From Candidatus Nomurabacteria bacterium (GTDB taxonomy: Bacteria; Patescibacteriota; Patescibacteriia; HK-STAS-PATE-3): a DNA stretch of 64,000 nucleotides. The stretch's first letter is position 1, and each line of letters starts with the position of its first letter. Made by a program: the position numbers and the translations under genes. Below are positions 5,310 to 64,000 of the stretch, in pieces. The notes under the pieces were generated by a model, which had not been told where the DNA came from, did not search any database, and was given only the letters and a program-made list of their open reading frames with translations. The stretch spans positions 416,001 through 480,000 of the forward strand of contig CP060223.1 in assembly GCA_023898465.1 (NCBI GenBank), written 5' to 3'.

Positions 5310-5311
5310 TC

Positions 5312-11176: not shown

Positions 11177-11177
11177 T

Positions 11178-20832: not shown

Positions 20833-20836
20833 GAGA

Positions 20837-24959: not shown

Positions 24960-27175
<2,216 letters not shown>

Positions 27176-37819: not shown

Positions 37820-37820
37820 A

Positions 37821-38132: not shown

Positions 38133-38158
38133 TAACGAGAATCTGTATCAGCATAGTC

Positions 38159-38840: not shown

Positions 38841-38987
38841 CACAAATTACTCTACTAAAAAGCGGTCAAAAATGCAAGGGGTCACGCTATAAAAAATCCA
38901 AACTTAGCGTGCTGATTAATAAAAACAACGTGCCTTTGTGATCACGCCTATTGTGACTTGTCACTTTAGCCACTATGATGATACCGA

Positions 38988-40396: not shown

Positions 40397-40414
40397 GCGC
40401 GTTTGGGAGGATGC

Positions 40415-40960: not shown

Positions 40961-40978
40961 GTAGAAGGAGATGAGATC

Positions 40979-42502: not shown

Positions 42503-42505
42503 GGG

Positions 42506-46230: not shown

Positions 46231-47187
46231 ATGAACTACCTTATTACCGGTTCCGCAGGATTTATTGGATCACACCTCTCCACCACCCTCTTAGCACAAG
46301 GACATCGCGTCATTGGGATTGATGATCTGAATGATTACTATTCTGTTACCCAAAAGCAAGAAAATATAACGCAGCTCAAAGAATTTTCTGAATACTCCTT
46401 TCTTCAATGCGACATTCGTAAACCAGAAGAAATAAAAACATTTCTGCAAAAATATTCACAACCAATTGACGCCATTATTCACCTTGCCGCTCGGGCGGGA
46501 GTGCGGCCTTCAATTGCGAAACCAACCCTTTATACTGATGTAAATGTAAATGGCACTGTGCAAATGCTTGAGCTTGCTCGGGTTTTTCAAATCCCTAAAT
46601 TTATTTTTGCCTCCTCCTCTTCGGTCTACGGTAATCAAGAAAAAACCCCTTTTAGTGAAACAGATGCTGTTGATACACCGATATCACCTTATGCGGCAAC
46701 AAAGCGAGCTGGTGAATTACTTAGCTACACTTATCATGCATTGCACGGCATGAGTGTGGCCTGTCTACGCTTTTTTACCGTATATGGACCAAAAGGACGG
46801 CCGGATATGGCGCCCTACCTCTTCGTTGATAAAGTGCATCGTGGCGAAGCTATTACAAAATTTGGCAACGGAGAAACGCGCCGAGATTACACCTATATTG
46901 AGGATATTATCTCTGGAATTCTCGCAAGTCTACAAGCTGATATTGGTTACGAAATTATTAATCTAGGTAACTCTCATACGATCTCATTAAATGAATTTAT
47001 CGCAACAGTAGAACGAGTAACTGGAAAAACGGCTATTGTTGACCAACAGGGTCCCCAGCCGGGTGATGTGCAACAAACTTTTGCGGATATTACGAAAGCA
47101 AAAAAACTGCTTGGTTACGATCCAAGCACCGCAATCGAAAGCGGTCTCCAACATTTTTATGAATGGTATAAACGTTATCGCGTATGA
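46231..47187 (+). CDS. NAD-dependent nucleotide-sugar epimerase (UDP-glucuronate/UDP-GlcNAc 4-epimerase-like, SDR extended family)
   Basis: 318 aa. Rossmann TGSAGFIGSHL, catalytic YAATKRAGE (YxxxK) and an S(S)SSVYG block. Confidence 0.85.
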   Translation: MNYLITGSAGFIGSHLSTTLLAQGHRVIGIDDLNDYYSVTQKQENITQLKEFSEYSFLQCDIRKPEEIKTFLQKYSQPIDAIIHLAARAGVRPSIAKPTLYTDVNVNGTVQMLELARVFQIPKFIFASSSSVYGNQEKTPFSETDAVDTPISPYAATKRAGELLSYTYHALHGMSVACLRFFTVYGPKGRPDMAPYLFVDKVHRGEAITKFGNGETRRDYTYIEDIISGILASLQADIGYEIINLGNSHTISLNEFIATVERVTGKTAIVDQQGPQPGDVQQTFADITKAKKLLGYDPSTAIESGLQHFYEWYKRYRV

Positions 47188-48146
47188 ATGAAATAACAAC
47201 CACTAAAGCATTTTTTTCAGTCGTCGTACCGGTCTATAACGAAGTCGAGGCTGTGGCTAGTCTTCATGCTGAGATTCTTCAGATCATGCAGACGATGCAA
47301 AAACCTTTTGAGATTATCTTTGTAGACGACGGAAGCAGAGACGGCACATTTGAAAAATTACAATCTCTACATCCGATTACGATTATCCGTTTGCGAAAAA
47401 ACTTTGGACAGACCGCTGCACTGGACGCTGGTTTTAAACATGCTCAAGGGGAAATTATTTTTACCCTGGACGGTGATGGACAAAATGATCCAGCAGACAT
47501 ACCTGGACTTTATGCGAAGATTGAAGAGGGGTATGATGTGGTTTCTGGGTGGAGAAAAAACCGAAAAGACACTTTTTCGAAGCGCTTTTTGTCTCGTGGA
47601 GCAAACTTCCTTCGCGGATTTCTAGTAGCAGATAAAATTAAAGACTCTGGCTGCACGCTCAAAGCATATCGAAGAGAATGCTTCGAGGACTTGGACCTCT
47701 TCGGTGAAATTCATCGTTTCATACCGGCAATTCTAGCGTGGAAAGGTTTCCGCATCGGCGAAATAGTCGTTAATCATCGCGCTCGAACCACTGGCCGAAC
47801 AAAATACAACTGGCGCCGCGTGATAAAAGGTTTTGTCGATATGGTAAGCGTCTGGTTTTGGCGAAAATACTCTAGCCGTCCTCTCCATCTTTTTGGCGGT
47901 CTTGGCATATTGGCTGGAGCCGCTGGTCTCGTCTTAGGACTTTACCTTGCCATTGCTCGACTAATGGGAATTATCTCACTCCAAAACAGCATCTGGCCAT
48001 TGATTTCTGTTTTTCTGATCCTAGCTGGCATCCAATTATTTATTTCTGGACTCCTGGGTGATATTGCTATCAAGACTTACTACAACGGCAAACGGCAAAT
48101 CTACACCATACGTTCAATTACCACATCGCGTAGAGAAAATTCATGA
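47184..48146 (+). CDS. GT2 polyprenyl-phosphate glycosyltransferase (GtrB/ArnC/DPM1-like) with C-terminal TM helices
   Basis: 320 aa. FSVVVPVYNE...IFVDDGSRDGT...DGDGQNDP motifs and two C-terminal TM segments. Confidence 0.8.
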   Translation: MNEITTTKAFFSVVVPVYNEVEAVASLHAEILQIMQTMQKPFEIIFVDDGSRDGTFEKLQSLHPITIIRLRKNFGQTAALDAGFKHAQGEIIFTLDGDGQNDPADIPGLYAKIEEGYDVVSGWRKNRKDTFSKRFLSRGANFLRGFLVADKIKDSGCTLKAYRRECFEDLDLFGEIHRFIPAILAWKGFRIGEIVVNHRARTTGRTKYNWRRVIKGFVDMVSVWFWRKYSSRPLHLFGGLGILAGAAGLVLGLYLAIARLMGIISLQNSIWPLISVFLILAGIQLFISGLLGDIAIKTYYNGKRQIYTIRSITTSRRENS

Positions 48147-49273
48147 GTCGAATACTGTTACTTAATTACGAGTTTCCACCTCTTGGTGGTGGCGCTAGTC
48201 CACTTAGCTACGAGCTAGCTCGAGGATTTGTGCAAAATGGCCATTCAGTCACTGTTGTCACAATGGGCTATAAAACCCTCCCTCGATATGAAGAAAAAGA
48301 CGGTATGCGGATCTTTCGACTCCGTTCAGTTCGAGCAAAAAAAGAGATATGTACGCCATGGGAACAATTCACATTCATCATCTCCGCTTTTTTCTTTTTC
48401 ACAAACCATTTAAAAAAAGAAAAATATGACGTTAATCATACGCATTTTTTAATACCTAGTGGAATTATTTCATGGTGGCTCAAAAAAAAATATCAATTGC
48501 CTTATGTCGTTACCAGTCACGGTAGTGATGTTCCTGGCTTCAACGATGATAGATTTAAGCTTCTTCACAAATTTACCGGCCCAATACTCCGCTTGGTAAG
48601 CAATAATAGTGATAAAATTATTGTTCCCTCAAAATATCTAGGAACCCTCATTGAAAAGAATATTAATTCTGCATTACATAGTAAAATTTATTACATTCCT
48701 AACGGCATAGATGAAAAGAAGTTTGTGCCACAAGAAAAGAAAAAAATCATTCTTTCCACTGGACGATTATTACCAAGAAAAGGTTTTCAGTATTTGATAA
48801 ATGCAATGGCAAAAGAAAACTTGGGATATGAATTACACATTGCTGGTGATGGTCCTATGATGACAGAACTTCAAAAGCTAGCAAGTAACGCAAAAAGTAA
48901 AATAGTTTTTCATGGTTGGCTTGATAATCTTAGCCACGAATACAAAGAACTTCTTGAATCCGCTGCCATTTATAGTTTGGTTTCACCTAAGGAAAACGCA
49001 AGTGTCGCCTTACTTGAGGCGATGAGCGCGGGCTGCGCTATAATCACCAGCAGTTCGGGTGGAGCAGCAGAAACAATGGGTGAGGCCGGTATTACCATAG
49101 AAGCAAAAAACCAAACAAGTATCAATGAAGCGCTGCGTCATCTCACCACCTCCAGTGAAGAGATTCAACGCTTAGGTCAACTTGCCCGCAAACGCGTGCT
49201 TGAAAAATTTAGCTGGACAACTGTATTTCATCAATATAATCAACTATTCACACCTTACGGAGTTAAACTATGA
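48143..49273 (+). CDS. glycosyltransferase family 4
   Basis: 376 aa. GT4 N-domain (MSRILLLNYEFPPLGGGAS) and C-terminal E-x7-E region (SPKENASVALLEAMSAGCAIITS). Confidence 0.8.
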   Translation: MSRILLLNYEFPPLGGGASPLSYELARGFVQNGHSVTVVTMGYKTLPRYEEKDGMRIFRLRSVRAKKEICTPWEQFTFIISAFFFFTNHLKKEKYDVNHTHFLIPSGIISWWLKKKYQLPYVVTSHGSDVPGFNDDRFKLLHKFTGPILRLVSNNSDKIIVPSKYLGTLIEKNINSALHSKIYYIPNGIDEKKFVPQEKKKIILSTGRLLPRKGFQYLINAMAKENLGYELHIAGDGPMMTELQKLASNAKSKIVFHGWLDNLSHEYKELLESAAIYSLVSPKENASVALLEAMSAGCAIITSSSGGAAETMGEAGITIEAKNQTSINEALRHLTTSSEEIQRLGQLARKRVLEKFSWTTVFHQYNQLFTPYGVKL

Positions 49274-50151
49274 AAAAGATAAAACTGCTATTCATCCTTG
49301 CCTGGCGAAATCTGCGTTGGACTTTTATTAAAGCAATTCACCTAAATGGCCAAATATCCGTACAAGTGTATGGAAAGAAAATTGTTCTCTATCTTAATCG
49401 TGTTGGATTAGACATCAAGGAGAATAATATTTTTAAACAGCTCGCTTTAGATCATAATCGCGAAGCTGAGGCCTCTAAGGTAATGCTAGACTTTATCGAG
49501 CCTGGAGACGAAATTTTTGAAGCCGGCGCAAATATTGGCTACTACGTTTTACTTGAAGCGAGTCGACTACAAGGCCAAGGTAAAATTTACGCAATTGAGC
49601 CAGATCCTAGTAACTACGAGCTACTTAAAAAAAATGTGGAGTTAAATGAACTGCAAAATTATGTTGATGTCCGTAAACTATCGGTCAGCGATAAAGTCGG
49701 TCACTCAGAATTTTTCCTAAGTAAGGATTCTAACCTGCACAGCTTCCTTCCGAGCGAAAATGATGAAGAGAGAACCTCAATTATGGTAGAGACAACTACC
49801 ATTGATGCCTTCTTAGCAGATAAACCAAAGGTTAACTTTATCCGAATGGACATAGAAGGCTATGAATGTCGAGTTATTTATGGGATGAAACAATTCCTTG
49901 CTAAGCCTGGCCCTTTAAAACTTTTTATTGAGCTGCATCCAAAGCTGGTTTCAAGGGAAGAAATGTTGAATTTGCTTACCATTTTGGAAGAAAGCGGTTT
50001 CACTATACATAAAGCAATCTCGCGAGATAACTATCTTCGGAAGCAGCTAGGACAAACCACTGTTGAGGAAATGACTATGGCTGAATTAAAGAGCGATCCG
50101 CGCTTGCTGGAAGAAAAACGCTCATTTGAAATGTTTTTCATAAAAAAATAA
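49270..50151 (+). CDS. FkbM-family SAM-dependent methyltransferase
   Basis: 293 aa. EAGANIGYYVLLEAS (SAM-binding glycine-rich motif) and FIRMDIEGYE, typical of the Methyltransf_21/FkbM domain. Confidence 0.7.
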   Translation: MKKIKLLFILAWRNLRWTFIKAIHLNGQISVQVYGKKIVLYLNRVGLDIKENNIFKQLALDHNREAEASKVMLDFIEPGDEIFEAGANIGYYVLLEASRLQGQGKIYAIEPDPSNYELLKKNVELNELQNYVDVRKLSVSDKVGHSEFFLSKDSNLHSFLPSENDEERTSIMVETTTIDAFLADKPKVNFIRMDIEGYECRVIYGMKQFLAKPGPLKLFIELHPKLVSREEMLNLLTILEESGFTIHKAISRDNYLRKQLGQTTVEEMTMAELKSDPRLLEEKRSFEMFFIKK

Positions 50152-50152
50152 C

Positions 50153-51031
50153 ATGACCCAGGATGCTCAAAAACATCCCCTACTCACTGTCTGTATAGTT
50201 CACTACAGAAGGCTTGAGCAGCTCCAAAAAACAATAGATGCTCTTTTTCAAAATACCCGTACTGCATTTCTTCTCCGTGTGTATAACAACGGATACGAGG
50301 ATGATGGAATCAGGGAGTATCTAGATGGTATTAATCAGCGTAGCGATACTACGGTTATCTTTGACACAAAAAATATCGGCTGCTCCCCTGCTCGACACGA
50401 AATTGTAAAAAATATTGAGACACCCTTCATCCTCATGCTTGATGATGACATGTATGTAAATAAAGATTGGGACGTCCCCGTATTTAAAAAATTTGCAGAA
50501 AATCCTACGATTGGCGCTATTGGATTTTCAATTTATAAAATTGATGGGAGCTTCTGGTGGACAGGTGGACGCAATATTATTCTATCAAAAAAAGAAATTA
50601 AAATAGAGCGACCTCATATCGATCCAGAAAAATCAGACCTTGATTTTATAGAGCTTGATGATGTTGCCGCGGGGGCAATGATTTATCGAAAAGAACTTGA
50701 GGATATTATCGTTTGGGACAAGAATTATTTTATCGGCTTTGAGGATCTGGAGAAAGGTCTACATTTAAAACAGAGCAAATATTCCTGTCTCGTCTCAATT
50801 CAAAGTAAATTTATCCACGACAAAATATCTGAGAAACAGGAATACGCTGCTTATAACAATGCACGACGAAATTACCACGCCTACCGGAGAAGTTATCTAC
50901 ATTTTCTAAAGGAAAATAGATATCGTCTTGATTTGAAGCGCCATCTTTTCTACAAATATGTTTGTCTTCTTCCGAATAACATTCTGCAGAAGTTGGTATA
51001 TACTTGGTTAAGCATAAAAAAGAAGGGTTAG
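50153..51031 (+). CDS. GT2-like glycosyltransferase (GT-A fold)
   Basis: 292 aa. LTVCIVHYRR near the N-terminus and a DxD-like MLDDDMYV block. Confidence 0.55.
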   Translation: MTQDAQKHPLLTVCIVHYRRLEQLQKTIDALFQNTRTAFLLRVYNNGYEDDGIREYLDGINQRSDTTVIFDTKNIGCSPARHEIVKNIETPFILMLDDDMYVNKDWDVPVFKKFAENPTIGAIGFSIYKIDGSFWWTGGRNIILSKKEIKIERPHIDPEKSDLDFIELDDVAAGAMIYRKELEDIIVWDKNYFIGFEDLEKGLHLKQSKYSCLVSIQSKFIHDKISEKQEYAAYNNARRNYHAYRRSYLHFLKENRYRLDLKRHLFYKYVCLLPNNILQKLVYTWLSIKKKG

Positions 51032-51032
51032 T

Positions 51033-52823
51033 ATGAAAGAAATTCTACAGAAGCTTCAGGTGATTTTGCCACCAGGTGATAAGAAAAAAATCTTTGGCAT
51101 TTTTGTTTTAATGCTCATTGCAGCGATTTTAGAAGTTATCGGGATTAGTCTAATTCTTGCATTCATTTCAACGGTTTCTAATCCTGATACTCTTTTTCAA
51201 ATCACCTGGCTTGCCCCAATACTACAACGTGCAAATATTACGGATGCAAAAGGCTTACTTACCTACGGGTCGATTCTTCTCATTGTGCTCTTTGTTTTAA
51301 AAAATGCCTATATTATTTCGTTTCAGTATATCCAATCGCATTTCGTTTATCGCAGATTCAGCGCAATATCATCTCGGCTCTTTAATTCATACATGCGGGC
51401 GCCTTATATTTATCACCTTAATAATAATTCAGCTCGCCTTGTGCGTAATGTAACTGGAGAAACCACCTTACTCGTACACTACATCATGCTCCCCTTGCTG
51501 GTGGTGGTCATGGAATCAATCATGATCATTAGTATTAGTATCTTTCTTTTTGCGGTTGAGCCACTCAATACACTCATAGTGCTTTTCTTTGTCGGATCAA
51601 GTGGTATTTTTTTCCTTCGCTTAGTCAAAAAAAAGATTCAACACTTCGGATCTGAATCTCTGATTGAACGAGAAACTATGATTCGTCGCGTGAATGAAGG
51701 TGTTGGTGGTATAAAGGAAATACTCGTAAAGAATCGACAATCTTGGTTTATTAATGCGTTTACTCAATCGATCCATACTTACGCTAAAGCTGAAACATAC
51801 AAAAACATTTTTAAGATGAGCGCCCGGCCCGTTATTGAAACCGTTGCGGTGGCAGGCATGCTTTTAGTCGCCTTAGTACTCGTGTGGCAAGGACGTGGTG
51901 TAGAGTCGATCTTACCAGTACTAAGTCTCTTCGGCGTTGCCACATTTAAACTTATGCCCTCTTTAGATAAGGTTGTGAGTAATAGTAATGTGATTCGTTA
52001 TTACACTTATACGCTAAACTCAATCCATGATGATATTGCTGAGTTGAGTAAAATTGAAACTCCAATACACACAAACTCTGACAATAAAAAGATTTCCATC
52101 TCATCGACCTTAAGTCTTCAAAAGGTATATTTTCGCTACCCAGGCAGTGAGAAACAAGTGCTGCAAGATGTTAGTCTCACTATTCCAAAAGGTGCGGCAA
52201 TCGGATTTGTTGGCCCTTCTGGAGCTGGAAAAAGCACCATAGTGGATATTATCCTCGGACTACTGTCAATTGATTCGGGGCAAATCCTCGTTGATGGAAA
52301 AGATATAAAAAATACTATGGCAGCCTGGCAAAAAAATATCGGCTATATCCCGCAAACTATTTTCCTGGCTGATAATACTATTCGTAATAATATCGCCTTC
52401 GGACTAAACGACAATGAAATTAATGATGCACAGGTTTCTCGTGCTATTAAAATGGCACAGCTAGAAGAGTTCATTGCCTCCCTACCGCAAGGAGTGAACA
52501 CAATGGTTGGTGAACGAGGTGTTCGCTTAAGCGGTGGACAGAGACAGCGCATCGGTATTGCCCGAGCGCTTTATCATGACCCAGAGGTCTTAGTAATGGA
52601 TGAGGCGACATCCTCGCTTGATAATCAAACTGAAAAATATATTATTGATGCAATTGAAAACCTCAAACGGGATAGAACCATTATCATCGTGGCGCATCGT
52701 CTCAGTACAGTAGAGAATTGTGATAACTTGTTTTTCATCGAAAAAGGACACATAAAAGATTCTGGGACTTACTCACATATCATTCAACAAAACAGCGAGT
52801 TACTCGTAAATGAAAAAAGGTAA
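51033..52823 (+). CDS. ABC exporter, fused 6-TM permease plus ATPase (MsbA/PglK-like type I exporter)
   Basis: 596 aa. Six N-terminal TM helices, Walker A GPSGAGKST, signature LSGGQRQRIGIARAL and Walker B LVMDEATS. Confidence 0.85.
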   Translation: MKEILQKLQVILPPGDKKKIFGIFVLMLIAAILEVIGISLILAFISTVSNPDTLFQITWLAPILQRANITDAKGLLTYGSILLIVLFVLKNAYIISFQYIQSHFVYRRFSAISSRLFNSYMRAPYIYHLNNNSARLVRNVTGETTLLVHYIMLPLLVVVMESIMIISISIFLFAVEPLNTLIVLFFVGSSGIFFLRLVKKKIQHFGSESLIERETMIRRVNEGVGGIKEILVKNRQSWFINAFTQSIHTYAKAETYKNIFKMSARPVIETVAVAGMLLVALVLVWQGRGVESILPVLSLFGVATFKLMPSLDKVVSNSNVIRYYTYTLNSIHDDIAELSKIETPIHTNSDNKKISISSTLSLQKVYFRYPGSEKQVLQDVSLTIPKGAAIGFVGPSGAGKSTIVDIILGLLSIDSGQILVDGKDIKNTMAAWQKNIGYIPQTIFLADNTIRNNIAFGLNDNEINDAQVSRAIKMAQLEEFIASLPQGVNTMVGERGVRLSGGQRQRIGIARALYHDPEVLVMDEATSSLDNQTEKYIIDAIENLKRDRTIIIVAHRLSTVENCDNLFFIEKGHIKDSGTYSHIIQQNSELLVNEKR

Positions 52824-52827
52824 GAAT

Positions 52828-53904
52828 ATGAACACATTTAATGAAGAGTTAAATATATCAATAAAAAAGAATTTTCCTAATAATTATCAAGATAATGTTC
52901 TTCAAATACGGTTTAAAAAAAAGAAATTCAAAGTCTGGTTATTAGAAATATTATCGGATTTCACATACAGAATTGGATTGTTCAATCTAATTCTCAAAAG
53001 AAAAAAAATACTAATCGACAGTTTTCATTATCTTTATGATCGACTTAGCGACGACTATTCTAGAGAACTGTTAATACAAGTACTCACGTTCAGATTGTTG
53101 GGAAGTCGTAAAGTAAAGCTCCCGCTAAATGACGGTAACTACTTTAAGAGGATTGAAGACATTGAAAAAAGCGTTGCTAATAAAGACGATTTTCTCTCAC
53201 CAAACTTTTTAGACTGGAAATTATTTTTGTTTGATCTTGAGCAATATGGATATAAGGGAAAAGCATACTCGATAAGCCCAAGCATTTTTAGTAGCTTTGT
53301 ACAGCCGCAATACCAATATAATGGCACACTTATTGCAGCTAAGCCAGGCGACGTTGTTATTGATGCTGGAGCGTGTTGGGGCGAAACGGCTATGTATTTC
53401 GCTGAAAGGGTTAAAGAAAATGGAAAAGTGTACAGTTTTGAATTCCTACCTGAAAACCTCGAGGTAATGAGAAAAAACCTTTCTCTAAACCCAGAATATG
53501 CAAAACAAATTACCATGGTGGAAAAACCCGTATGGTCGAAAAGCAACGAGCCTATAACCTGCAACAACCTTGGTCCAGGAAACAAAGTTATTACTGGTGT
53601 AGATGAAGCATCAACTACTTATCATACAATCTCAATTGATGATTTTGCTGAACAAAATACACTTGAAAACGTTAACTTTATTAAAATGGATATAGAGGGA
53701 TCAGAGCTCGAGGCATTAAAAGGTGCTGAAAATGTAATAAAAAAATTTCGGCCTGTGTTGTCTATTTGCGTCTACCATAAACCAAGTGATTGCAAGCACA
53801 TTCCTGCCTATATTGAAAGCTTAAACTTGGGCTATAAGTTTTATTTTGACCACTATTCAATCTACGGTGAAGAAAGTGTACTCTTTGCGAAAGTCGAAAA
53901 CTAA
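52828..53904 (+). CDS. FkbM-family methyltransferase (second copy)
   Basis: DAGACWGETAMYFAE glycine-rich SAM motif and FIKMDIEGSE. The start is taken at the ATG after the ABC gene stop. Confidence 0.65.
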   Translation: MNTFNEELNISIKKNFPNNYQDNVLQIRFKKKKFKVWLLEILSDFTYRIGLFNLILKRKKILIDSFHYLYDRLSDDYSRELLIQVLTFRLLGSRKVKLPLNDGNYFKRIEDIEKSVANKDDFLSPNFLDWKLFLFDLEQYGYKGKAYSISPSIFSSFVQPQYQYNGTLIAAKPGDVVIDAGACWGETAMYFAERVKENGKVYSFEFLPENLEVMRKNLSLNPEYAKQITMVEKPVWSKSNEPITCNNLGPGNKVITGVDEASTTYHTISIDDFAEQNTLENVNFIKMDIEGSELEALKGAENVIKKFRPVLSICVYHKPSDCKHIPAYIESLNLGYKFYFDHYSIYGEESVLFAKVEN

Positions 53905-53905
53905 T

Positions 53906-55033
53906 ATGCAGAGCTCAAACCAACAACCAATTTATGTAACTAAACCAGCACTCCCGCCACTTGAAGAATTTACTGCTGAGCTAAAAACGATATGGGAGAA
54001 TCGAGTGCTAACAAATAATGGACCATTCCATCAACAATTTGAACTAGCCCTCGCTAAACATCTGGATGTTCCATTTGTATCTGTATTTAGCAATGGAACA
54101 CTTGCTTTGATGACTGCACTGCAATCACTTGATATCCAAGGTGAAGTTATTACTACCCCATTTAGCTTTGTCGCAACAACGCATGCACTTTGGTGGAACA
54201 AAATAACTCCAATATTTGCTGATATTGAATCAACTCATTTTACACTTGATCCTAATAAAACTGAGGAACTTATTACACCTCAAACAAGCGCGATCATGCC
54301 TGTGCACATTTATGGTTACCCATGCAGGACAAAGGAAATCGACATGATAGCAAAAAAGCATAATCTCAAGGTCATTTACGACGCCGCCCACGCCTTTGAT
54401 GTGAAGCAAGATGGTATTTCTGTATTAAATGCTGGCGACCTTTCTGTCCTAAGCTTTCATGCGACGAAAGTTTTTAATACAATTGAGGGTGGTGCGATCA
54501 TTTCCCATAGTGAAGAAATGAAAAATAGGATTGATCACCTAAAAAACTTTGGCTTTGAAGATGAGACAATAATAATTGGTCCCGGCATTAATGCCAAAAT
54601 GAACGAAGTGCAAGCTGCATATGGACTACTTCAACTAAAATATGTTGCTAAATATATAGAAGCCAGAAAAAGAATTGTAGAAAAATATCGTCTAGCACTA
54701 TCTGATATACCTGGCTTGCATTTCTTAGAAGACCAGGAAGGCGTACAAAATAATTACGCCTACTTCCCGATTGTTATTGATACAGAACATTGTATTCATA
54801 CGCGAGATTATATTTATGAGGAATTAAAAAAAGACAATATTTTTTCTCGTAGATATTTTTATCCACTCATAAGTAAAATTCCACTCTACGAAAATCTGGC
54901 GACAACTAAAGCAGCGCAGCTTCCGGTTGCATCTAAAATTAGCGAACAGGTTCTTTGTCTACCCTTATACCATGATTTAAGTGATAGTGATTTTACACGC
55001 ATCATTAGCAGTCTTAAAAGAATGCTTACATAG
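53906..55033 (+). CDS. DegT/DnrJ/EryC1/StrS-family PLP-dependent sugar aminotransferase
   Basis: Start at ATG 53906 (MQSSNQQPIYVTKP). The conserved SFHATK Schiff-base lysine block and the overall fold-type I pattern. Confidence 0.85.
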   Translation: MQSSNQQPIYVTKPALPPLEEFTAELKTIWENRVLTNNGPFHQQFELALAKHLDVPFVSVFSNGTLALMTALQSLDIQGEVITTPFSFVATTHALWWNKITPIFADIESTHFTLDPNKTEELITPQTSAIMPVHIYGYPCRTKEIDMIAKKHNLKVIYDAAHAFDVKQDGISVLNAGDLSVLSFHATKVFNTIEGGAIISHSEEMKNRIDHLKNFGFEDETIIIGPGINAKMNEVQAAYGLLQLKYVAKYIEARKRIVEKYRLALSDIPGLHFLEDQEGVQNNYAYFPIVIDTEHCIHTRDYIYEELKKDNIFSRRYFYPLISKIPLYENLATTKAAQLPVASKISEQVLCLPLYHDLSDSDFTRIISSLKRMLT

Positions 55034-55045
55034 GAATCCATTCAG

Positions 55046-55747
55046 ATGAAAATAGCAATCATGCAGCCCTATTTTTTCCCTTATATCGGATATTTTCAGC
55101 TGATGAATGCTGTAGATGAATTTGTGGTTTACGACAACATTCAATATACCAAGAAGGGGTGGATCAATCGTAACCGTATCCTCCTCAATGGAAAAATTGA
55201 AACTATTTCTCTAGCGATAAAGAAAGATTCTGATTATCTCGATATACGCGACCGTTGCTTAGCTGATAATTGGATAAAGGAACGAAGTAGTATATTAAAC
55301 AGACTCAAATCCTCTTATCAGAAAGCCCCTTACTTCATTCCTACATATACTCTGGTTGAAAAGATACTCAAACAAGATTCGGTCAATCTTTTTGAATTTC
55401 TTTTTAACAGCCTGCAACTCATCAAAGAATATCTCCACATCCCCACCCCTCTTATCATTTCCTCTCAGGTTCCAGTCGACCATACGCTAAAATCAAGCGA
55501 GCGCGTATTGGCTATTTGCAAAGCACTCCAAGCAAATCAATATATTAATCCAATTGGTGGAACAGAATTATATACAAAAGAGCATTTCCTTAAAAATGGC
55601 GTTGCGCTCCAATTTCTCCGAACTCAAGCACATCATTACCAACAGTTTAATAAAGAACATGTACCCTATCTCTCTATTATAGATGTTATGATGTTTAATA
55701 GTCAGGAAGCGCTAAAGGACTTACTCCAAGAATACATTCTCGAATAA
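55046..55747 (+). CDS. WbqC-family protein (uncharacterised glycan-modification family)
   Basis: 233 aa starting MKIAIMQPYFFPYIGYFQLM, the hallmark N-terminus of WbqC-like proteins found in O-antigen/capsule loci. Confidence 0.75.
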   Translation: MKIAIMQPYFFPYIGYFQLMNAVDEFVVYDNIQYTKKGWINRNRILLNGKIETISLAIKKDSDYLDIRDRCLADNWIKERSSILNRLKSSYQKAPYFIPTYTLVEKILKQDSVNLFEFLFNSLQLIKEYLHIPTPLIISSQVPVDHTLKSSERVLAICKALQANQYINPIGGTELYTKEHFLKNGVALQFLRTQAHHYQQFNKEHVPYLSIIDVMMFNSQEALKDLLQEYILE

Positions 55748-55756
55748 TAATCCCAT

Positions 55757-57061
55757 ATGCCCGCTCAAATAGATAAAAAAATTCGCGTACTCCTCTTCCC
55801 GGCTGGCTCAGAAATTGCTTTTGAAATTTATCACTCGCTTCGTCATAACCTCCACGTAGAAATATTTGGAGCTTCGGGAAAGTCTGATCACGCGAGCTAC
55901 TTATATGATTCCGAGCATTACTTCGAGGGTCCATATCAAATCTCCGACGAAAAATTTAATGACCACTTCACCGAGTTATTAAAAGAGCAAAAAATCGATA
56001 TGGTCATGCCAACACATGACTCAGTAACTGAATTTTTGGCAAAACACCGGGATAAATATCCAGCAAAAATTTTGACTTCTCCATACGAAAGCACAAGGAT
56101 AGCTCGACAGAAGATCCTCACCTACGAGCTTTTTCAAGCTTATGATTTCCTGCCAAAGCAGTATTTACCGCCATATCAGAATCTTGAGTATCCTATTTTC
56201 CTCAAGCCAAATCAGGGACAAGGCGGGAAAGGCACTTGTTTAGTTCATACATATGAAGAGCTGCAGGAACAAACCAGTAAGCAACCTGACTTAGTTGCTT
56301 ACGAATATTTACCAGGCGAGGAGCTGAGTGTTGATTGTTTTACCGATCGACATGGCCAGTTGCGTTTTATTGGACCAAGGACTAGAGCAAGAATTGATTT
56401 TGGCATTTCCTTTAGGACAGAGTCTCGTCCGGTCACTCAGGATATTCAGACAATTGCCGAAACAATAAATACAAAGGTTGCTATTCGAGGCGCGTGGTTT
56501 TTTCAAGTAAAAAAAGATAGCACAGGTAAATATAAACTCATGGAATTTGCAGTTCGCCAGGCAAGTACTATGGGTCTTTATCGTCAAATTGGAGTTAATT
56601 TTGCCTTACTCACGATATTCGACGCGCTCGACATCGATGTAAAGATTCTAAAAAATGACTATCCTATCACGCTTGATCGCAGAATGCTAAACCGATATAA
56701 AGCTGATTTCACTTACACAAAAGTATACATTGATTTCGATGATACAATTATCATCAATGAAAAAATTAACATTATCGCACTGCAGTTTCTCTATCAATGT
56801 AAATATGCTCATAAGAAAATTTGTCTTCTCACAAAACATGAGTTCGATCTCGATGAGACATTACAGAAATACTGCCTTGCAAAAAATCTATTTGACGAGA
56901 TTGTGATTTTACATCCTGGAGAGGACAAGACTGATCACATCGTTGCCGACGATGCAATTTTTATTGATAACTACTTTTTTGATAGAGAAAAAGTAAAGCA
57001 GCGTCACAATATTCCTGTATTTGATGTAGACGCCATCGAGAGTTTATTACTTAATACATAA
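55757..57061 (+). CDS. ATP-grasp ligase fused to a C-terminal HAD-like domain
   Basis: An N-terminal about 300 aa ATP-grasp pattern (IFLKPNQGQGGKGTCLV...AYEYLPGEELSVDCF). The C-terminal about 130 aa begins with HAD motif I (VYIDFDDTII). Confidence 0.6.
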   Translation: MPAQIDKKIRVLLFPAGSEIAFEIYHSLRHNLHVEIFGASGKSDHASYLYDSEHYFEGPYQISDEKFNDHFTELLKEQKIDMVMPTHDSVTEFLAKHRDKYPAKILTSPYESTRIARQKILTYELFQAYDFLPKQYLPPYQNLEYPIFLKPNQGQGGKGTCLVHTYEELQEQTSKQPDLVAYEYLPGEELSVDCFTDRHGQLRFIGPRTRARIDFGISFRTESRPVTQDIQTIAETINTKVAIRGAWFFQVKKDSTGKYKLMEFAVRQASTMGLYRQIGVNFALLTIFDALDIDVKILKNDYPITLDRRMLNRYKADFTYTKVYIDFDDTIIINEKINIIALQFLYQCKYAHKKICLLTKHEFDLDETLQKYCLAKNLFDEIVILHPGEDKTDHIVADDAIFIDNYFFDREKVKQRHNIPVFDVDAIESLLLNT

Positions 57062-57064
57062 GGC

Positions 57065-58030
57065 ATGTTCCGCTGGAAGAAACTAGGAAAAGTATTTGAC
57101 CCAACACAAAACGGAAATGATGCGTGGATGCAGACTTTTGCTCAAGCTCCTGCCACTTTAGTTTTTGATTCTTTTGTTCGAGTATATTTTTCTTGTCGGC
57201 CACTTCCGGACAAAAATGGTCAAGCGACAAGCTATGCCGGCTTTGTTGATCTTGATCGAAAAAACCTTTTTAATATTCTTAGGATCTCAAAAAAACCCGT
57301 GCTTCCGCTTGGAGAAATTGGTAGTTTTGACGAGTTTGGTATTATGCCCATCTCAGTCATTCGAGATAAGCATCGATTACTCGCTTACTATGGCGGATGG
57401 ACTCGATGCGTTTCCGTTCCATTCAATATCGCTATTGGTCTGGCTGAAAGTAAGGACAATGGGGAAACTTTTGAAAAAATTGGCCCTGGACCCGTACTCT
57501 CGTATAGCCCTGATGAGCCGTTCTTAGTTGCGGTTCCTAAAATTAGGAAATTTCAAAATCGCTGGTTTCTCTGGTATACCGCCGGGACTCATTGGAGAAA
57601 AGTAAATGGAAAGACTGAGGCGGTTTATGGCATCCGGATGGCTACATCAACTGACGGCGTTACATGGAAAAAAGAGCATCGAAAAATTATTCCAAACGTT
57701 TTAGGTGAGAACGAGGCGCAAGCAAGCGCTGACGTTTATTTTGCTAACGACATCTATCACATGTTTTTTTGCTATCGGCATACTTCTGATTTTCGTACAA
57801 ATAAAGATCGGGCTTATCGGATTGGCTATGCTTACTCTCAGGATGGATTTCATTGGCAGCGTGACGATTCACGGGTAGGCATCGACATATCGACTGAAGG
57901 ATGGGATTCAGAAATGATCTCTTTTCCTCATATTTTTTCACTGGACGGAAAAACCTACATGCTCTACTTGGGAAATAACTTTGGTCGAGAAGGGTTTGGA
58001 ATTGCTGAACTTGAAGGGAGTTTACAATAA
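57065..58030 (+). CDS. five-bladed beta-propeller glycosidase-fold protein (GH43/GH32/GH130-like), tandem paralog 1
   Basis: 321 aa, rich in Trp/Asp/Gly. It starts M-x-W-K-K-L-G-K-V-F-D-P and ends GNNFGREGFGIAEL. It is a clear paralog of the next ORF. Confidence 0.5.
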   Translation: MFRWKKLGKVFDPTQNGNDAWMQTFAQAPATLVFDSFVRVYFSCRPLPDKNGQATSYAGFVDLDRKNLFNILRISKKPVLPLGEIGSFDEFGIMPISVIRDKHRLLAYYGGWTRCVSVPFNIAIGLAESKDNGETFEKIGPGPVLSYSPDEPFLVAVPKIRKFQNRWFLWYTAGTHWRKVNGKTEAVYGIRMATSTDGVTWKKEHRKIIPNVLGENEAQASADVYFANDIYHMFFCYRHTSDFRTNKDRAYRIGYAYSQDGFHWQRDDSRVGIDISTEGWDSEMISFPHIFSLDGKTYMLYLGNNFGREGFGIAELEGSLQ

Positions 58031-58031
58031 T

Positions 58032-58985
58032 ATGCACTGGGAAAAACTCGGAAAAATTTTTGATCCGTCCCAACACAATCTTCCAAACGATTGCAAGCTT
58101 TTCGCGCAATCGCCTCAGGTGTTACTTTTGGACGACCGAATACGGATATATTTTTCTACCCGACAAGCAGATACACCCACAACCTACCTCAGTCATATTG
58201 CTTATGTCGATTTTACAAATGACTTTTCTAAAGTACTTGAAGTCTCAAAAAAAACCGTACTTCCTTTAGGGAAACTTGGCACCTTTGATGAACACGGCAT
58301 CTTTCCAATGAATGTCTTAAGGTTTCAAGATCGAGTACTAGGGTTCACAAGCGGCATTTCTCGTAGATCTTCTGTATCAGTGGAAACATCTATTGGCCTG
58401 GTGGAAAGCTTTGATAACGGAGAAAGCTTTCAGCGAAATAGTGATGGCCCTATCCTTACCTCCTCTCTTCATGAGCCATTTATGGTAGGCGATCCTTTTG
58501 TCCAAGCATACGAAGGAAAACTTCATATGTGGTACATCAACGGAGTACGATGGAAACCAAAAACAGCCCAGGAACCTGCTGCACGAGTATACAAAATTGC
58601 TCATGCAACTTCCTTAGACGCCATACATTGGCAAAATGATAATCGTCAAATTATTAGTGACGTTCTCAATGCCGATGAGTGTCAGGCGCTTCCTACTGTA
58701 ATTAAAATTAAGCAAAGGTACTACATGTACTTTTGCTATCGCGAAGCCAGTGATTTTCGAACAAACAAAAATCGTGCGTATCGAATTGGATGCGCCTATT
58801 CGGATGACCTTACCCATTGGACTCGAGATGATGCCCAAGCTGGTATCACTGTTTCAGACCAGGGCTGGGATTCAGAAATGCAGTGCTACCCTCACGTCTT
58901 TCAAAAAGATGATGTAATATATTTACTTTATAATGGAAACGCCTTCGGCCGCGATGGTTTTGGCTTAGCTAAGCTTGTTGGATAA
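58032..58985 (+). CDS. five-bladed beta-propeller glycosidase-fold protein, tandem paralog 2
   Basis: Starts MHWEKLGKIFDPSQ and ends GNAFGRDGFGLAKL. The conserved internal blocks FRTNK(D/N)RAYRIG(Y/C)AYS.D..HW.RDD and WDSEM..(F/Y)PH(I/V)F are shared with paralog 1. Confidence 0.5.
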   Translation: MHWEKLGKIFDPSQHNLPNDCKLFAQSPQVLLLDDRIRIYFSTRQADTPTTYLSHIAYVDFTNDFSKVLEVSKKTVLPLGKLGTFDEHGIFPMNVLRFQDRVLGFTSGISRRSSVSVETSIGLVESFDNGESFQRNSDGPILTSSLHEPFMVGDPFVQAYEGKLHMWYINGVRWKPKTAQEPAARVYKIAHATSLDAIHWQNDNRQIISDVLNADECQALPTVIKIKQRYYMYFCYREASDFRTNKNRAYRIGCAYSDDLTHWTRDDAQAGITVSDQGWDSEMQCYPHVFQKDDVIYLLYNGNAFGRDGFGLAKLVG

Positions 58986-58990
58986 TACCT

Positions 58991-59938
58991 ATGAATTCTG
59001 ATTCTCCTCTCGTCAGTGTAGTATGCGTCACATACAATCATGGTCCATATATTGCAGAAGCAATAGAAAGTTTTTTACAGCAAGAAACTGACTTCCCTTT
59101 TGAAATTATCATTGGAGAAGACTTCAGTACAGACGAAACCAGGGAAATTTGCTTGGAATATGCAAAAAAGTACCCTGATAAAATCCACCTAGCGATTTCT
59201 GATGGAAATGTCGGGGCACGTAATAATTATTTTCGCGCTTTGTCAGCCGCACGAGGAAAATATATTGCATTTTGTGAAGGAGATGATTACTGGTCGGATC
59301 CAAAAAAGTTGGCAATCCAAATTGGCTACATGGAAAAACATCCAGAGTGCAGTCTCACCTTCCACTCGGTTCGAATTATCAACGGAGATAAAGCAACCAA
59401 TAAGACGATTCGTCCCTTTAACAAAAAAACAATTATTCCAAAAAATACCTTTTTTGGCTACGGCACGATGGCACCATCCCCCACTCTTGTGTATCCCAGA
59501 AAATATATTATAGACCCACCTGATTGGCTTCGTCACTCGCCTGTTGGGGATATACCCTTGAAGCTCTATCTCTCTCAACTTGGTACAGTAGTATATCTGG
59601 ATAAAATCATGGCCATGCGAAGAATTGGCGTCGAGGGTTCGTGGAGTAAACGCATGCAAACTTTTTCATACCGACAAAAACTCTTTCCAGGTATGATTGT
59701 AATGCTTGAAGGTTTTAACGAATTTAGTAAATATATATATGCCTATCAAGTACTAAAAAAACAGCTAAGCTACGAAATTAAAAGTGTGAAAAATCCAATA
59801 ACAAAAGTAAGACAAATGCTAAAACTCATCCGAACAAAATATTCAAAATCGTACTCTTCTCTTTCGCTTACAAAAAAAATGTTTGCAATTGGTAATCTAT
59901 TTATCACAAGCATAGTTGAACAGGTAGCACGTCGTTAG
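58991..59938 (+). CDS. GT2 glycosyltransferase (GT-A)
   Basis: 315 aa. VSVVCVTYNHGPYIAEAIESFL...EIIIGEDFSTDET, and a DxD-like region (CEGDDYW). Confidence 0.8.
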   Translation: MNSDSPLVSVVCVTYNHGPYIAEAIESFLQQETDFPFEIIIGEDFSTDETREICLEYAKKYPDKIHLAISDGNVGARNNYFRALSAARGKYIAFCEGDDYWSDPKKLAIQIGYMEKHPECSLTFHSVRIINGDKATNKTIRPFNKKTIIPKNTFFGYGTMAPSPTLVYPRKYIIDPPDWLRHSPVGDIPLKLYLSQLGTVVYLDKIMAMRRIGVEGSWSKRMQTFSYRQKLFPGMIVMLEGFNEFSKYIYAYQVLKKQLSYEIKSVKNPITKVRQMLKLIRTKYSKSYSSLSLTKKMFAIGNLFITSIVEQVARR

Positions 59939-59940
59939 CC

Positions 59941-60831
59941 ATGGAACCCACTACATATCCAAACAGCCCGGTGTTCTTAATAGGCTCCCCGCGCAGTGGA
60001 AAAACAATACTGCACACCTTACTTGCGCAAGGTAATGACTTCGCCTGGTTTTCCCAATACTCAAGCAAATTTTATACTCATACTTGGCCGGCTTATTTAC
60101 CACGTATATATCAAATTCCATGGCTGGGAAGATATTTACAAAAACATGCTCGTTTACGCATACTCCCCCACCCTGAAGAAATTTCTCACAAGTTTATTCC
60201 AATAATGACTCAGTACGGTTCACTTGAGCAAACTCATGTGAATGAAGCAAATCAAAAAAAACTGCAGCACTGGGTGAGAAAACAAATGCAAGCGCAGAAA
60301 AAAAATCGTATGCTCATTGACTGCGGCCGACCTGCTCGCATATCTTTTTATCACAAAGTCTTTCCTGAGGCAAAATTTATTCACCTTATCAGAGATGGGC
60401 GCGCAGTAGCAGTTGAAATGCTCCGTAGTTACCCTTATATGTTTACTGAAAAAAGTAGTATTGATAGTTATTTTATCCAGACGCCCGAGGAATTTAAAAA
60501 CTACTTACCTAAAAAAAGCGATGATCCATCTCGACCTCTCATTTTAGCCGCCCTGTACTGGAAAATGTCTGTTCGTGAAATTGAGCGGCAAGCCAACCCA
60601 CTTGGAGAGGATGTTTTATCCATCCGATTTGAGGATATTCTCCAAAATCCTACTTCGGAGCTAGAAAAAATCTGTCGCTTTGTGGAATCGGCAAACTCTG
60701 CTAAAATCATCAAGTCTGCTAAGGTTCAGCGATTTCAGTATAAGGATGCCTCCCAGCTCATGGACAAGCAAGGCTACGAGAAATTGACCCATATACTGCA
60801 TGACGAGCTAAAAAACTATGGCTACATTTAA
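59941..60831 (+). CDS. PAPS-dependent sulfotransferase-family protein
   Basis: 296 aa. The 5'-PSB-like P-loop GSPRSGKTILHTLL near the N-terminus and the 3'-PB-like HLIRDGRAVAVEM. Confidence 0.65.
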   Translation: MEPTTYPNSPVFLIGSPRSGKTILHTLLAQGNDFAWFSQYSSKFYTHTWPAYLPRIYQIPWLGRYLQKHARLRILPHPEEISHKFIPIMTQYGSLEQTHVNEANQKKLQHWVRKQMQAQKKNRMLIDCGRPARISFYHKVFPEAKFIHLIRDGRAVAVEMLRSYPYMFTEKSSIDSYFIQTPEEFKNYLPKKSDDPSRPLILAALYWKMSVREIERQANPLGEDVLSIRFEDILQNPTSELEKICRFVESANSAKIIKSAKVQRFQYKDASQLMDKQGYEKLTHILHDELKNYGYI

Positions 60832-60858
60832 CCATTTAGTATTCAGAAAAGTAAGCAT

Positions 60859-61575
60859 ATGATGGATCTCGATATACTTAAGAAACGTGCTGATGATCGC
60901 TGGTTTGTAGTGGATCGATCAAAAGGCAAAAGGGTCTTAGAAATCGGTTGCGTAAACCATACTATTGAAGGAATTGAGGAGCAGCGCAGGATTGGCACTT
61001 GGCTTTTTGATTATCTCCACGTGTATGGAACTCATGCTACTGGTATTGATATTGACCAACCAGCAATTGACCATTTAGCCAAACAGGGCTACGACATCCG
61101 GTATGGAGATGGGCAAGATTTTAATCTGAACGAAGAGTTTGAAGTTATTATTGCATCAAAAGTAATTGATCATCTTACCAATATTGATGGTTTCCTAAAA
61201 AGCTGTAAAAAGCATCTCTCTCCCGACGGTAAACTCATTATCACTGATGACAACATTCTCTGCGTTCCTCAGCTCCTGACATGGTATGCAAAGAAAAATG
61301 TTGGACATCCTGACGATGATATAACTGTAAAAATTATTCCGGAGTACTTCCGCCTCTTTGTGAGGCGCTATGGCTTTGAGGTCGAAGAAATACATTATGT
61401 AGTTGGCACAGGAAATTCTTTTCTCTTCAAGCTGTTCCGTTTCATAAAAAAAATAATGCCAAAGCGCCTAGTACATGAACCGCTTTTTTATCCAAACTAC
61501 ATCATTCAATTACGTCATCGTACGAATGAAGAGAGCGAGAAGGGTGCTACTGCACATCACTCGCATCAGCACTAG
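60859..61575 (+). CDS. class I SAM-dependent methyltransferase
   Basis: 238 aa. VLEIGCVNH (motif I, G-x-G-like), then acidic motif II (DIR), then VIIASKVIDHL (motif III). Confidence 0.6.
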   Translation: MMDLDILKKRADDRWFVVDRSKGKRVLEIGCVNHTIEGIEEQRRIGTWLFDYLHVYGTHATGIDIDQPAIDHLAKQGYDIRYGDGQDFNLNEEFEVIIASKVIDHLTNIDGFLKSCKKHLSPDGKLIITDDNILCVPQLLTWYAKKNVGHPDDDITVKIIPEYFRLFVRRYGFEVEEIHYVVGTGNSFLFKLFRFIKKIMPKRLVHEPLFYPNYIIQLRHRTNEESEKGATAHHSHQH

Positions 61576-63958: not shown

Positions 63959-64000
63959 CTCAATAGCCAGATCTCGATTCCAAAAGAAAACTAAACAAAT

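Follow-up and report, generated by a model that had tools for sequence, protein, structure and literature searches.

A tightly packed array of 15 open reading frames (ORFs) at positions 46231-61575 of a 64-kb stretch of the Candidatus Nomurabacteria genome (about 1.08 Mb), referred to below as the window, is a surface-glycan cluster of a known kind, with export of the PglK/Wzk type, in a lineage in which such loci have hardly been described. The window proteins are available in GenBank as USN53936 to USN53985, and where a gene is reported as absent from the window this holds for the 64-kb stretch only. We consider it likely that the locus is a cell-surface glycan biosynthesis operon composed of three layers, whose product is completed in the cytoplasm and then flipped by a PglK-like ABC protein. 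The locus is a mosaic. Its scaffold, typical of the candidate phyla radiation (CPR), is syntenic with a locus of Kerfeldbacteria and consists of a short-chain dehydrogenase/reductase (SDR), a polyprenyl-phosphate GT2, a GT4, an FkbM protein, a further GT2, the ABC protein and a convergent GT-C enzyme. The second layer, DegT-WbqC-(ATP-grasp)-propeller pair, is a horizontally mobile cassette found in many phyla, and the third comprises local extras, i.e. lineage-specific decorators (a second FkbM protein, a GT2, a sulfotransferase and a class I methyltransferase). The genes are numbered g01 to g15 in the order of the array.

Domains were assigned using Pfam gathering thresholds, NCBIfam equivalog cutoffs, sequence searches against the PDB, and prediction of hydrophobic segments and signal peptides. 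With the exception of the HAD half of an ATP-grasp fusion, every named family of the locus scored above its curated threshold. An earlier annotation made from the DNA letters only (the sequence-only reading) had listed two FkbM methyltransferases, a WbqC protein, a sulfotransferase, a DegT aminotransferase, three GT2 and one GT4 glycosyltransferases, an epimerase and a class I methyltransferase, all of which were recovered above the Pfam thresholds.

All 15 ORFs lie on the + strand, and the spacing between neighbours ranges from an overlap of 14 nt to a gap of 27 nt (-14 to +27 nt), in agreement with the earlier description of a co-directional, tightly packed array. That description counted sixteen genes; 15 were found here, which is also the number obtained by adding up its own list. 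The same DNA has been assembled independently (Logan SRR12358675, locus L001), and gene calling there yielded the identical 15 genes, with the DegT gene starting at ATG 53906 and that of the second propeller at ATG 58032. Promoter-like matches (39, with 45.4 expected from shuffled sequence) and terminator-like matches (13, with 13.5 expected from shuffles) within the array did not exceed chance. The scan is neutral on the question of a single operon, which is supported by the gene packing. Rfam and tRNA scans of the window returned no match.

The G+C content of the locus is 39.5% (34.3-43.9% in single genes), about 5 points below the 44.6% of the remaining window, while the contrast at third codon positions (GC3) is small (0.29-0.40 in the locus vs 0.31-0.46). 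A value lower than that of the backbone had been noted before, and this stands, although the figure given then (35-38%) was too low. The contrast appears exaggerated because the block immediately upstream (40.4-44.3 kb) is unusually G+C-rich. The three ORFs of this block, at 40403-44284 (+), have a G+C content of 52-55% and a GC3 of 55-63%, with about 43% for the window, and encode a FlgD_ig/Por_Secre_tail-like protein, a 507-aa protein without a Pfam match and a 592-aa M23 peptidase. The block is a compositional outlier and possibly foreign DNA.

The ABC protein and the proposed export route

The g06 gene (51033..52823, +) encodes an ABC half-transporter that resembles PglK and may act as the flippase of a polyprenyl-linked glycan. 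The protein contains ABC_membrane and ABC_tran domains in the layout of a type IV exporter half-transporter (membrane domain N-terminal, nucleotide-binding domain C-terminal), with hydrophobic segments spanning residues 23-311 and intact Walker A, LSGGQ and Walker B-Glu motifs. Among the NCBIfam models PglK ranks first (342.5 bits), followed by HepA (311 bits) and MsbA (308 bits), all below the equivalog cutoffs. The full-length protein matches PglK (285 bits) ahead of Sav1866 (220 bits) and MsbA (216 bits) among the homodimeric transporters of the PDB; ABCB1-type entries rank above PglK because two nucleotide-binding domains contribute to their score. When the membrane domain alone (aa 1-340) was compared with the PDB at E <= 0.001, only PglK was retrieved (61 bits, E = 9e-16), with residues 5-336 of g06 aligned to residues 2-332 of PglK.

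In Helicobacter pylori the counterpart of PglK is Wzk, an ABC flippase for undecaprenyl-diphosphate-linked glycans. Arginines R86, R260, R302 and R309 of PglK are functionally relevant and probably contact the pyrophosphate of the lipid-linked oligosaccharide (PMC5395944). These positions are occupied by K90, R265, K306 and K313 in g06, and by four lysines (K/K/K/K) in its orthologues from the Kerfeldbacteria locus (L003) and from a metagenome-assembled genome (MAG) named ‘Rickettsiella’ (L006). As judged from sequence, g06 appears to be PglK-like in its substrate-determining part, yet it is no PglK equivalog, and it appears to group with the glycan flippase, apart from drug or lipid A exporters. 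The sequence-only reading had proposed a PglK-type exporter and had named clustering with drug or lipid exporters as the finding that would speak against it; both the best models and the membrane domain point to PglK.

Campylobacter jejuni PglK resembles g06 in being a half-transporter of equal size, whose membrane domain aligns with that of g06 from end to end, in carrying basic residues at the four cavity positions, and in belonging to a glycan operon without Wzx. The two differ in that the similarity of their membrane domains is low (61 bits) and three of the four arginines of PglK are lysines in g06; moreover, g06 comes from a CPR bacterium, in which no oligosaccharyltransferase of the pgl type was seen in the window.

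A generic peptide, drug or lipid exporter might have come to lie in the operon by chance, the glycan leaving the cell by another way. The nucleotide-binding domain of g06 does match every ABCB-type exporter, and the score of the whole protein stays under the PglK equivalog cutoff. We nevertheless regard this explanation as very unlikely, given that the membrane domain on its own retrieves nothing other than PglK, that the functional basic residues are kept, that orthologues of g06 (62% and 53% identity) are located within glycan loci of two other lineages, and that the runner-up model, HepA, is itself a polysaccharide exporter. In addition, the locus contains no other exporter and the nearby Wzx gene is broken.

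As the sequence-only reading had stated, Pfam searches found neither a Wzx/Wzy nor a Wzm/Wzt pair among the 15 genes. The sole Wzx of the window, at 38988..40267 (+), which had been described as decayed, is a fragmented Wzx/MOP flippase pseudogene split into at least three pieces: an N-terminal Polysacc_synt part (38988-39491), a middle part (39630-40010) and a weakly MurJ/MatE-like C-terminal part (40052-40267). It lies beside truncated GT4 and GT2 genes. Together they make up a second, decayed glycan locus at 36685-40267, with the C-terminal half of a GT4, an intact DUF2304 gene, a GT2 lacking its N-terminus and the split Wzx/MOP gene, the frameshifts being either real or due to assembly error.

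The DegT-WbqC-propeller cassette

Five consecutive genes, g08 to g12, form the cassette. The first of them, g08 (53906..55033, +), encodes a DegT/DesI-like pyridoxal phosphate-dependent sugar 4-aminotransferase (Pfam DegT, 316 bits), the best NCBIfam model being DesI, a dTDP-4-dehydro-6-deoxyglucose aminotransferase (287 bits; cutoff, 650). The genes rmlA, rmlD and rmlB, for the supply of dTDP-4-keto-6-deoxyglucose, are placed outside the locus, about 24 kb upstream, at 20083..22677 (-). Their RmlB and RmlD products reach equivalog level (456 bits with a cutoff of 365, and 314 bits with a cutoff of 224, respectively), RmlA comes near (240 bits, below cutoff) and RmlC is weak. The cassette probably makes an N-acylated 4-amino-4,6-dideoxyhexose from dTDP-4-keto-6-deoxyglucose.

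The g09 gene (55046..55747, +) encodes a WbqC-family protein (PF08889, 232.1 bits; cutoff, 21.3 bits), which covers profile positions 1-217 of 218. A sequence search of g09 against the PDB gave no match, and the fold search alone was informative. The predicted fold is nearest to BshC and to class I aminoacyl-tRNA synthetases, which suggests that WbqC may be an amino-acid:amino-sugar ligase or transferase. BshC and MshC, to which we liken it, are cysteine ligases that have a class I aminoacyl-tRNA synthetase-type fold and acylate a glucosamine derivative at its amine. The N-terminal segment of WbqC is near-invariant, M-Q-P-Y-F-F-P-Y-I-G-Y-F-Q, at the place where class I aminoacyl-tRNA synthetases carry HIGH (alignment A1); it may be a nucleotide- or substrate-binding motif of the family’s own.

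The product of g10 (55757..57061, +) combines an ATP-grasp ligase (ATPgrasp_Ter, 54 bits) with a C-terminal domain of about 125 aa. It had been read as an ATP-grasp-HAD fusion: the ATP-grasp half is borne out by its profile, while the HAD half is indicated by motifs and not by a profile match. The first HAD-like motif of g10 reads D326-F-D328-D-T, and across 38 homologues the pattern D326-x-D328-x-T, T359, K391 and D404-N405 is invariant or nearly so, from which a HAD assignment of the domain is plausible. More than 100 proteins share the full-length fusion, with identities of 50-65%.

Genes g11 (57065..58030, +) and g12 (58032..58985, +) encode five-bladed beta-propeller paralogues that are 45% identical to each other, the first of which is predicted to be cytoplasmic like the second. 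The earlier description of two propeller paralogues of glycosidase-type fold holds: both show weak Pfam matches to GH130/GH32, and their folds match GH137, GH130, GH43 and GH32 enzymes. For GH130 (PF04041) the scores are 29.4 and 23.2 bits, with a threshold of 26 and no stretch passing on its own. When set against the five-bladed propellers of GH130/GT108 (beta-mannoside phosphorylases/synthases), g11 and g12 match GH137 equally well by structure. We found no paper that characterises the propeller pair or describes this CPR locus.

The fold matches, and the database names of relatives (‘glycosylase’, ‘exo-alpha-sialidase’, ‘GH43/DUF377’), raise the question of whether the propellers could be catabolic glycosidases or phosphorylases, serving salvage or trimming and not biosynthesis. 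Their predicted cytoplasmic location speaks against this, as does the fact that they are always paired and stand beside DegT/WbqC in biosynthetic cassettes of many phyla, including a minimal flagellin glycosylation island (see below) that holds nothing to degrade. An identity of about 60% across phyla argues for one fixed substrate, and GH130-fold enzymes with glycosyltransferase activity are known (PMC12814180), as is Uhgb_MS. A purely catabolic role of the propellers is, in our opinion, unlikely. More generally, sequence identity between phyla stays at 50-65% for WbqC, the propellers and the ATP-grasp fusion, a level typical of enzymes that act on a fixed small substrate, not of glycosyltransferases.

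The closest described parallels of the cassette are the viosamine (Qui4N) pathways of Shigella dysenteriae 7/E. coli O121, which make Qui4N(N-acetylglycyl), and those of Pseudomonas syringae and Burkholderia flagellin glycosylation. They share with it an RmlA/RmlB supply followed by a DegT-family 4-aminotransferase, N-acylation and methylation. We take the structure of the E. coli O121 glycan to be linked to its genes. WbqC is named after an O-antigen cluster, and in Shewanella a WbqC protein annotated as a putative glycine transferase is encoded beside a dTDP-Qui4N enzyme. When 5,426 E. coli genomes were searched for WbqC at the DNA level, no match was obtained at blastn sensitivity. The modified viosamine of P. 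syringae depends on vioB, vioR, vioS, vioM and an acyl carrier protein (PMC4622738), tailoring genes that differ from those of the cassette. Furthermore, the paired propellers and the ATP-grasp/HAD-like fusion are without counterpart in the described viosamine pathways.

A more far-reaching proposal, which we put forward as a speculation, is that the DegT-WbqC-propeller cassette, present in thousands of genomes, constitutes an undescribed route to N-aminoacylated 4-amino-4,6-dideoxyhexoses. WbqC would then be a minimal ligase of class I aminoacyl-tRNA synthetase fold, related to BshC and using ATP or aminoacyl-tRNA, and the propellers a biosynthetic heteromeric synthase or transglycosylase; the CPR product would be built on polyprenyl without a classical priming phosphoglycosyltransferase and exported by the PglK-like ABC protein.

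Related loci

The variability of the locus was judged against distant loci, i.e. L003, L006, two further loci (L007 and L009), and 80 loci from different GTDB species that were retrieved with the WbqC profile, 37 of them with full 10-kb flanks. Locus L003 of Kerfeldbacteria has the same gene order. In addition to the ABC protein (62% identity), it encodes counterparts of g01 (51%), g02 (63%), g03 (35%), g04 (46%), g05 (53%), DegT (66%), WbqC (60%), propeller 1 (61%), propeller 2 (60%) and the convergent PMT_2 GT-C enzyme (47%). It lacks the second FkbM protein, the ATP-grasp fusion, the sulfotransferase and the last methyltransferase, and instead carries other methyltransferases, a GNAT protein and a GT56 enzyme. 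The sequence-only reading held the heavy tailoring to be notable for a reduced genome; this near-syntenic locus makes it part of the normal equipment of CPR bacteria.

The GT56 (WecF-like) gene of L003 is located at 14091-15233. GT56 enzymes are presumably TDP-Fuc4NAc transferases, and the gene is therefore an independent pointer to a dTDP-4-amino-4,6-dideoxyhexose as the sugar of the cassette.

The ‘Rickettsiella’ MAG shares with the locus the ABC protein (53%), the second FkbM protein (52%, at the same position), DegT, WbqC, both propellers and the last GT2. A Metallophos gene that follows an ATP-grasp gene in this MAG was considered as an analogue of the HAD-like part of g10 and was not used, as the ATP-grasp protein is not an orthologue (no tblastn match). 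In Syntrophorhabdus (L007), a DegT-WbqC-methyltransferase-propeller1-propeller2 block lies beside Wzm/Wzt in place of the PglK-like protein, and a GtrA-type flippase is present.

Cupriavidus sp. TA19 (L009; BRZL01000078.1, 4819-14084) carries the block DegT-WbqC-methyltransferase-ATP-grasp/HAD-like-propeller1-propeller2-methyltransferase, with an ATP-grasp fusion 54% identical to g10. The block follows a TPR-GT41 glycosyltransferase gene and is flanked by fliE on one side and by flhB-like, fliK, fliT, fliS, fliD, flaG and flagellin genes on the other. In this culturable organism it seems to represent a kind of flagellin glycosylation island that has not been described before.

Among the full-flank loci, DegT accompanies WbqC, in an adjacent position, in 33 of 37. 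The propeller pair occurs in 22 of them, as well as in L003, L006, L007 and L009, and one propeller was never found alone. The ATP-grasp fusion was present in two of the 37 and a PglK-like ABC protein in one. No sulfotransferase of the g14 type was detected in the 37 full-flank loci, or in any of the 80 related loci. A metagenome scan with the protein flanking the locus upstream (44425-45936) found no relative, and one with the ABC protein gave matches at the level of the nucleotide-binding domain only (<=44% identity). Looking up the exact proteins led back to this locus and to no other.

Proposed assembly and decoration of the glycan

The first gene of the array, g01 (46231..47187, +), encodes an extended SDR resembling UDP-glucuronate 4-epimerases (Pfam Epimerase and GDP_Man_Dehyd). 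Its best PDB matches are 5u4q (262 bits), 6zl6 of Bacillus cereus (211 bits) and MoeE5 (157 bits), with GalE-type entries at <=155 bits; its score with the NCBIfam GalE model is 184 bits (cutoff, 262). We take 6zl6 and MoeE5 to be UDP-GlcA 4-epimerases, and g01 is probably an epimerase-type enzyme acting on UDP-glucuronate. The TDE motif marks 4,6-dehydratases. At this position g01 reads SSSSVYG, and with SSS in place of TDE in an epimerase-type enzyme it would therefore not provide the 4-keto sugar for DegT.

The g02 product (47184..48146, +) is a GT2 (117 bits) with C-terminal membrane helices (two or three hydrophobic segments, residues 240-291) of the ArnC/PgfS/AglJ type of polyprenyl-phosphate sugar transferases. 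Its NCBIfam scores are 167 bits for ArnC, 149 for PgfS and 75 for AglJ, all below the equivalog cutoffs. It is followed by a GT4 (GT-B) glycosyltransferase, g03 (48143..49273, +; Glyco_transf_4 and Glycos_transf_1). The two remaining GT2 enzymes are g05 (50153..51031, +; 58 bits), which is soluble and has no membrane segment, and g13 (58991..59938, +; 91 bits), the N-terminal domain of which resembles TuaG and EpsE. Convergent with the operon and cut by the end of the window is a PMT_2/ArnT-like GT-C gene (61547..64000, -; PMT_2, 29 bits) with many membrane segments; in L001 it is called as 836 aa, with a second PMT_2 gene behind it. The density of such genes is high, at least four PMT_2-type GT-C genes lying in or beside the window: 1698-3500 (+), 28869-30476 (-), 61547-64000 (-) and L001 19015-20702.

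Three S-adenosylmethionine (SAM)-dependent methyltransferases are encoded within the array. Two belong to the FkbM family: g04 (49270..50151, +; Methyltransf_21, 78.9 bits; TIGR01444, 98.4 bits) and g07 (52810..53904, +), in which an N-terminal extension of about 175 aa precedes the Methyltransf_21 domain (77.8 bits, residues 185-344; TIGR01444, 80.1 bits). The cutoffs are 22.7 bits (PF05050) and 37.7 bits (TIGR01444). The third, g15 (60859..61575, +), is a class I enzyme (Pfam Methyltransf_23, _11 and _12). Elsewhere in the window, at 24960-27175 (-), an adenosylhomocysteinase gene (equivalog, 638 bits; G+C content 48.6%, above the window mean) overlaps the gene of a PfkB-family nucleoside kinase by 4 nt. 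The two form a by-product removal pair that would fit heavy SAM use by the methyltransferases of the locus.

The g14 gene (59941..60831, +) encodes a predicted cytoplasmic protein of the Sulfotransfer_3 family (PF13469, 68.5 bits with a cutoff of 27 bits; Sulfotransfer_1, PF00685, 35.6 bits with a cutoff of 22 bits). Its PDB relatives are remote only: the polyketide-synthase sulfotransferase domain 4gox, CurM ST and TPST. Two stretches of g14, GSPRSGKT close to the N-terminus and LIRDGRAV about halfway along the protein, resemble what we take to be the 5′-PSB and 3′-PB motifs for binding of 3′-phosphoadenosine 5′-phosphosulfate (PAPS). The glycan is possibly sulfated, in a reaction that would require PAPS.

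Domain identities, the PglK-like membrane domain, synteny, the mobility of the cassette and the predicted location of the enzymes are the established part of this analysis, from which we infer the substrates, the order of steps, flipping, the acceptor and sulfation as follows. RmlA and RmlB would provide dTDP-4-keto-6-deoxyglucose, which g08 would aminate at C4 to a viosamine-type sugar. WbqC, a ligase of aminoacyl-tRNA synthetase fold like BshC/MshC, would join an amino acid or another acyl group to the sugar amine. The role of g10 would be to form a new amide or lengthen an existing one; its substrate may be phosphorylated, in which case removal of the phosphate would fall to the HAD-like domain. 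Another conserved step would be catalysed by g11 together with g12. On a polyprenyl carrier, the glycan would be put together by GT4 and GT2 enzymes, methylated by the SAM enzymes and possibly sulfated. As the tailoring enzymes of the locus are all predicted to be soluble, without a membrane segment or signal peptide, the glycan would be finished on the cytoplasmic face. A dimer of g06 would flip it outward, and GT-C enzymes would attach or decorate it outside, perhaps using a polyprenyl-phosphate sugar produced by g01 and g02.

Several points weigh against this reading, the whole of which is founded on homology and gene context. Neither the locus nor the window encodes a priming phosphoglycosyltransferase of the WecA, WbaP or PglC type, and the window was also found to lack a UDP-glucose dehydrogenase, genes for PAPS synthesis (ATP sulfurylase, adenosine 5′-phosphosulfate kinase), an oligosaccharyltransferase and an LCP ligase. 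The score of g06 with the PglK model is 342.5 bits, against an equivalog cutoff of 1000 bits. As regards the cassette, no characterised WbqC member was found in the literature, and the label ‘glycine transferase’ is an annotation that involves no experiment. The propellers have a glycosidase/phosphorylase fold. Finally, the C-terminal domain of g10 had no Pfam match at E <= 1, and no PDB match with either its sequence or a 20-sequence profile.

The array might instead serve two pathways. In this case one of them, made up of g01, g02 and the convergent GT-C enzymes, would work with a polyprenyl-phosphate monosaccharide and add a single sugar, perhaps galacturonate, to a glycan or protein outside the membrane, and the other genes would provide a separate, ABC-flipped lipid-linked oligosaccharide. 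The Rhizobium RgtE/LpsL/RgtA-D system is a parallel. The likeness of g01 to UDP-GlcA 4-epimerases, the ArnC and PgfS models and the C-terminal helices of g02, and the PMT_2 GT-C genes adjoining the locus in both CPR loci are in line with such a division. Three-component systems of this sort (ArnC/ArnT, GtrB/GtrA/Gtr*, PgfS/PgfM, RgtE/RgtA-D) are common in bacteria (PMC11127046), and the locus resembles them in its membrane-anchored GT2, in the nucleotide-sugar epimerase gene beside it and in the adjacent GT-C genes. It differs from them in its much larger tailoring pathway, in having an ABC flippase and in the lack of a small GtrA-type flippase, which is not encoded in the locus but is found in that of Syntrophorhabdus. 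Translational coupling of g01-g03 to the remaining array by 4-nt overlaps also argues against separate systems. We regard two pathways as a serious possibility, if somewhat less probable than a single one, and as a refinement of the operon explanation given above.

Priming could also proceed at the monophosphate level, without a phosphoglycosyltransferase. In this scheme the starting point would be a polyprenyl-phosphate sugar made by g02, in the manner of Haloferax AglJ. After elongation by the soluble GT4 and GT2 enzymes and flipping by the ABC protein, the oligosaccharide would be handed on to protein or the cell wall by a GT-C enzyme. AglJ is among the best matches of g02, the lack of a primer extends from the locus and the window to the 20-kb Kerfeldbacteria locus, and both CPR loci end, on the 3′ side, with a syntenic GT-C gene. 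However, PMT_2-type GT-C enzymes are known for the transfer of monosaccharides, and the remainder of the 1.08-Mb genome may contain a primer. The cavity residues of PglK that are kept basic in g06 are thought to bind pyrophosphate (PMC5395944), which argues mildly in the same direction, and we consider this route improbable. As for a WecA-type primer, a Glycos_transf_4 gene at 279-1325 (-), the only one of the window, was examined and rejected, as it encodes MraY (235 bits, above the cutoff; 52 bits for WecA).

Pilins are one conceivable acceptor of the glycan. A type IV pilus cluster is present in the window at 3582-13332 (+) and encodes a PilB-like ATPase, PilC, two proteins with an N-terminal methylation motif, PilM and PilN.

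The surface of CPR bacteria, which live as episymbionts and have genomes of about 1 Mb, is what contacts host and phage. A 15-kb operon amounts to about 1.4% of the genome devoted to one decorated glycan and shows where such organisms invest. From the near-syntenic locus of Kerfeldbacteria it would seem that CPR bacteria at large share a scaffold and exchange the tailoring cassettes within it. The part that merits most attention is the ubiquitous DegT-WbqC-propeller cassette, together with the structural clue to WbqC: WbqC and the paired propellers are widespread and highly conserved in O-antigen-like, capsule-like and flagellin loci, with no characterised example. If WbqC is indeed a ligase, it could explain the amino-acid-bearing viosamine (Qui4N-Gly-Ac) of E. 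coli O121 and S. dysenteriae 7.

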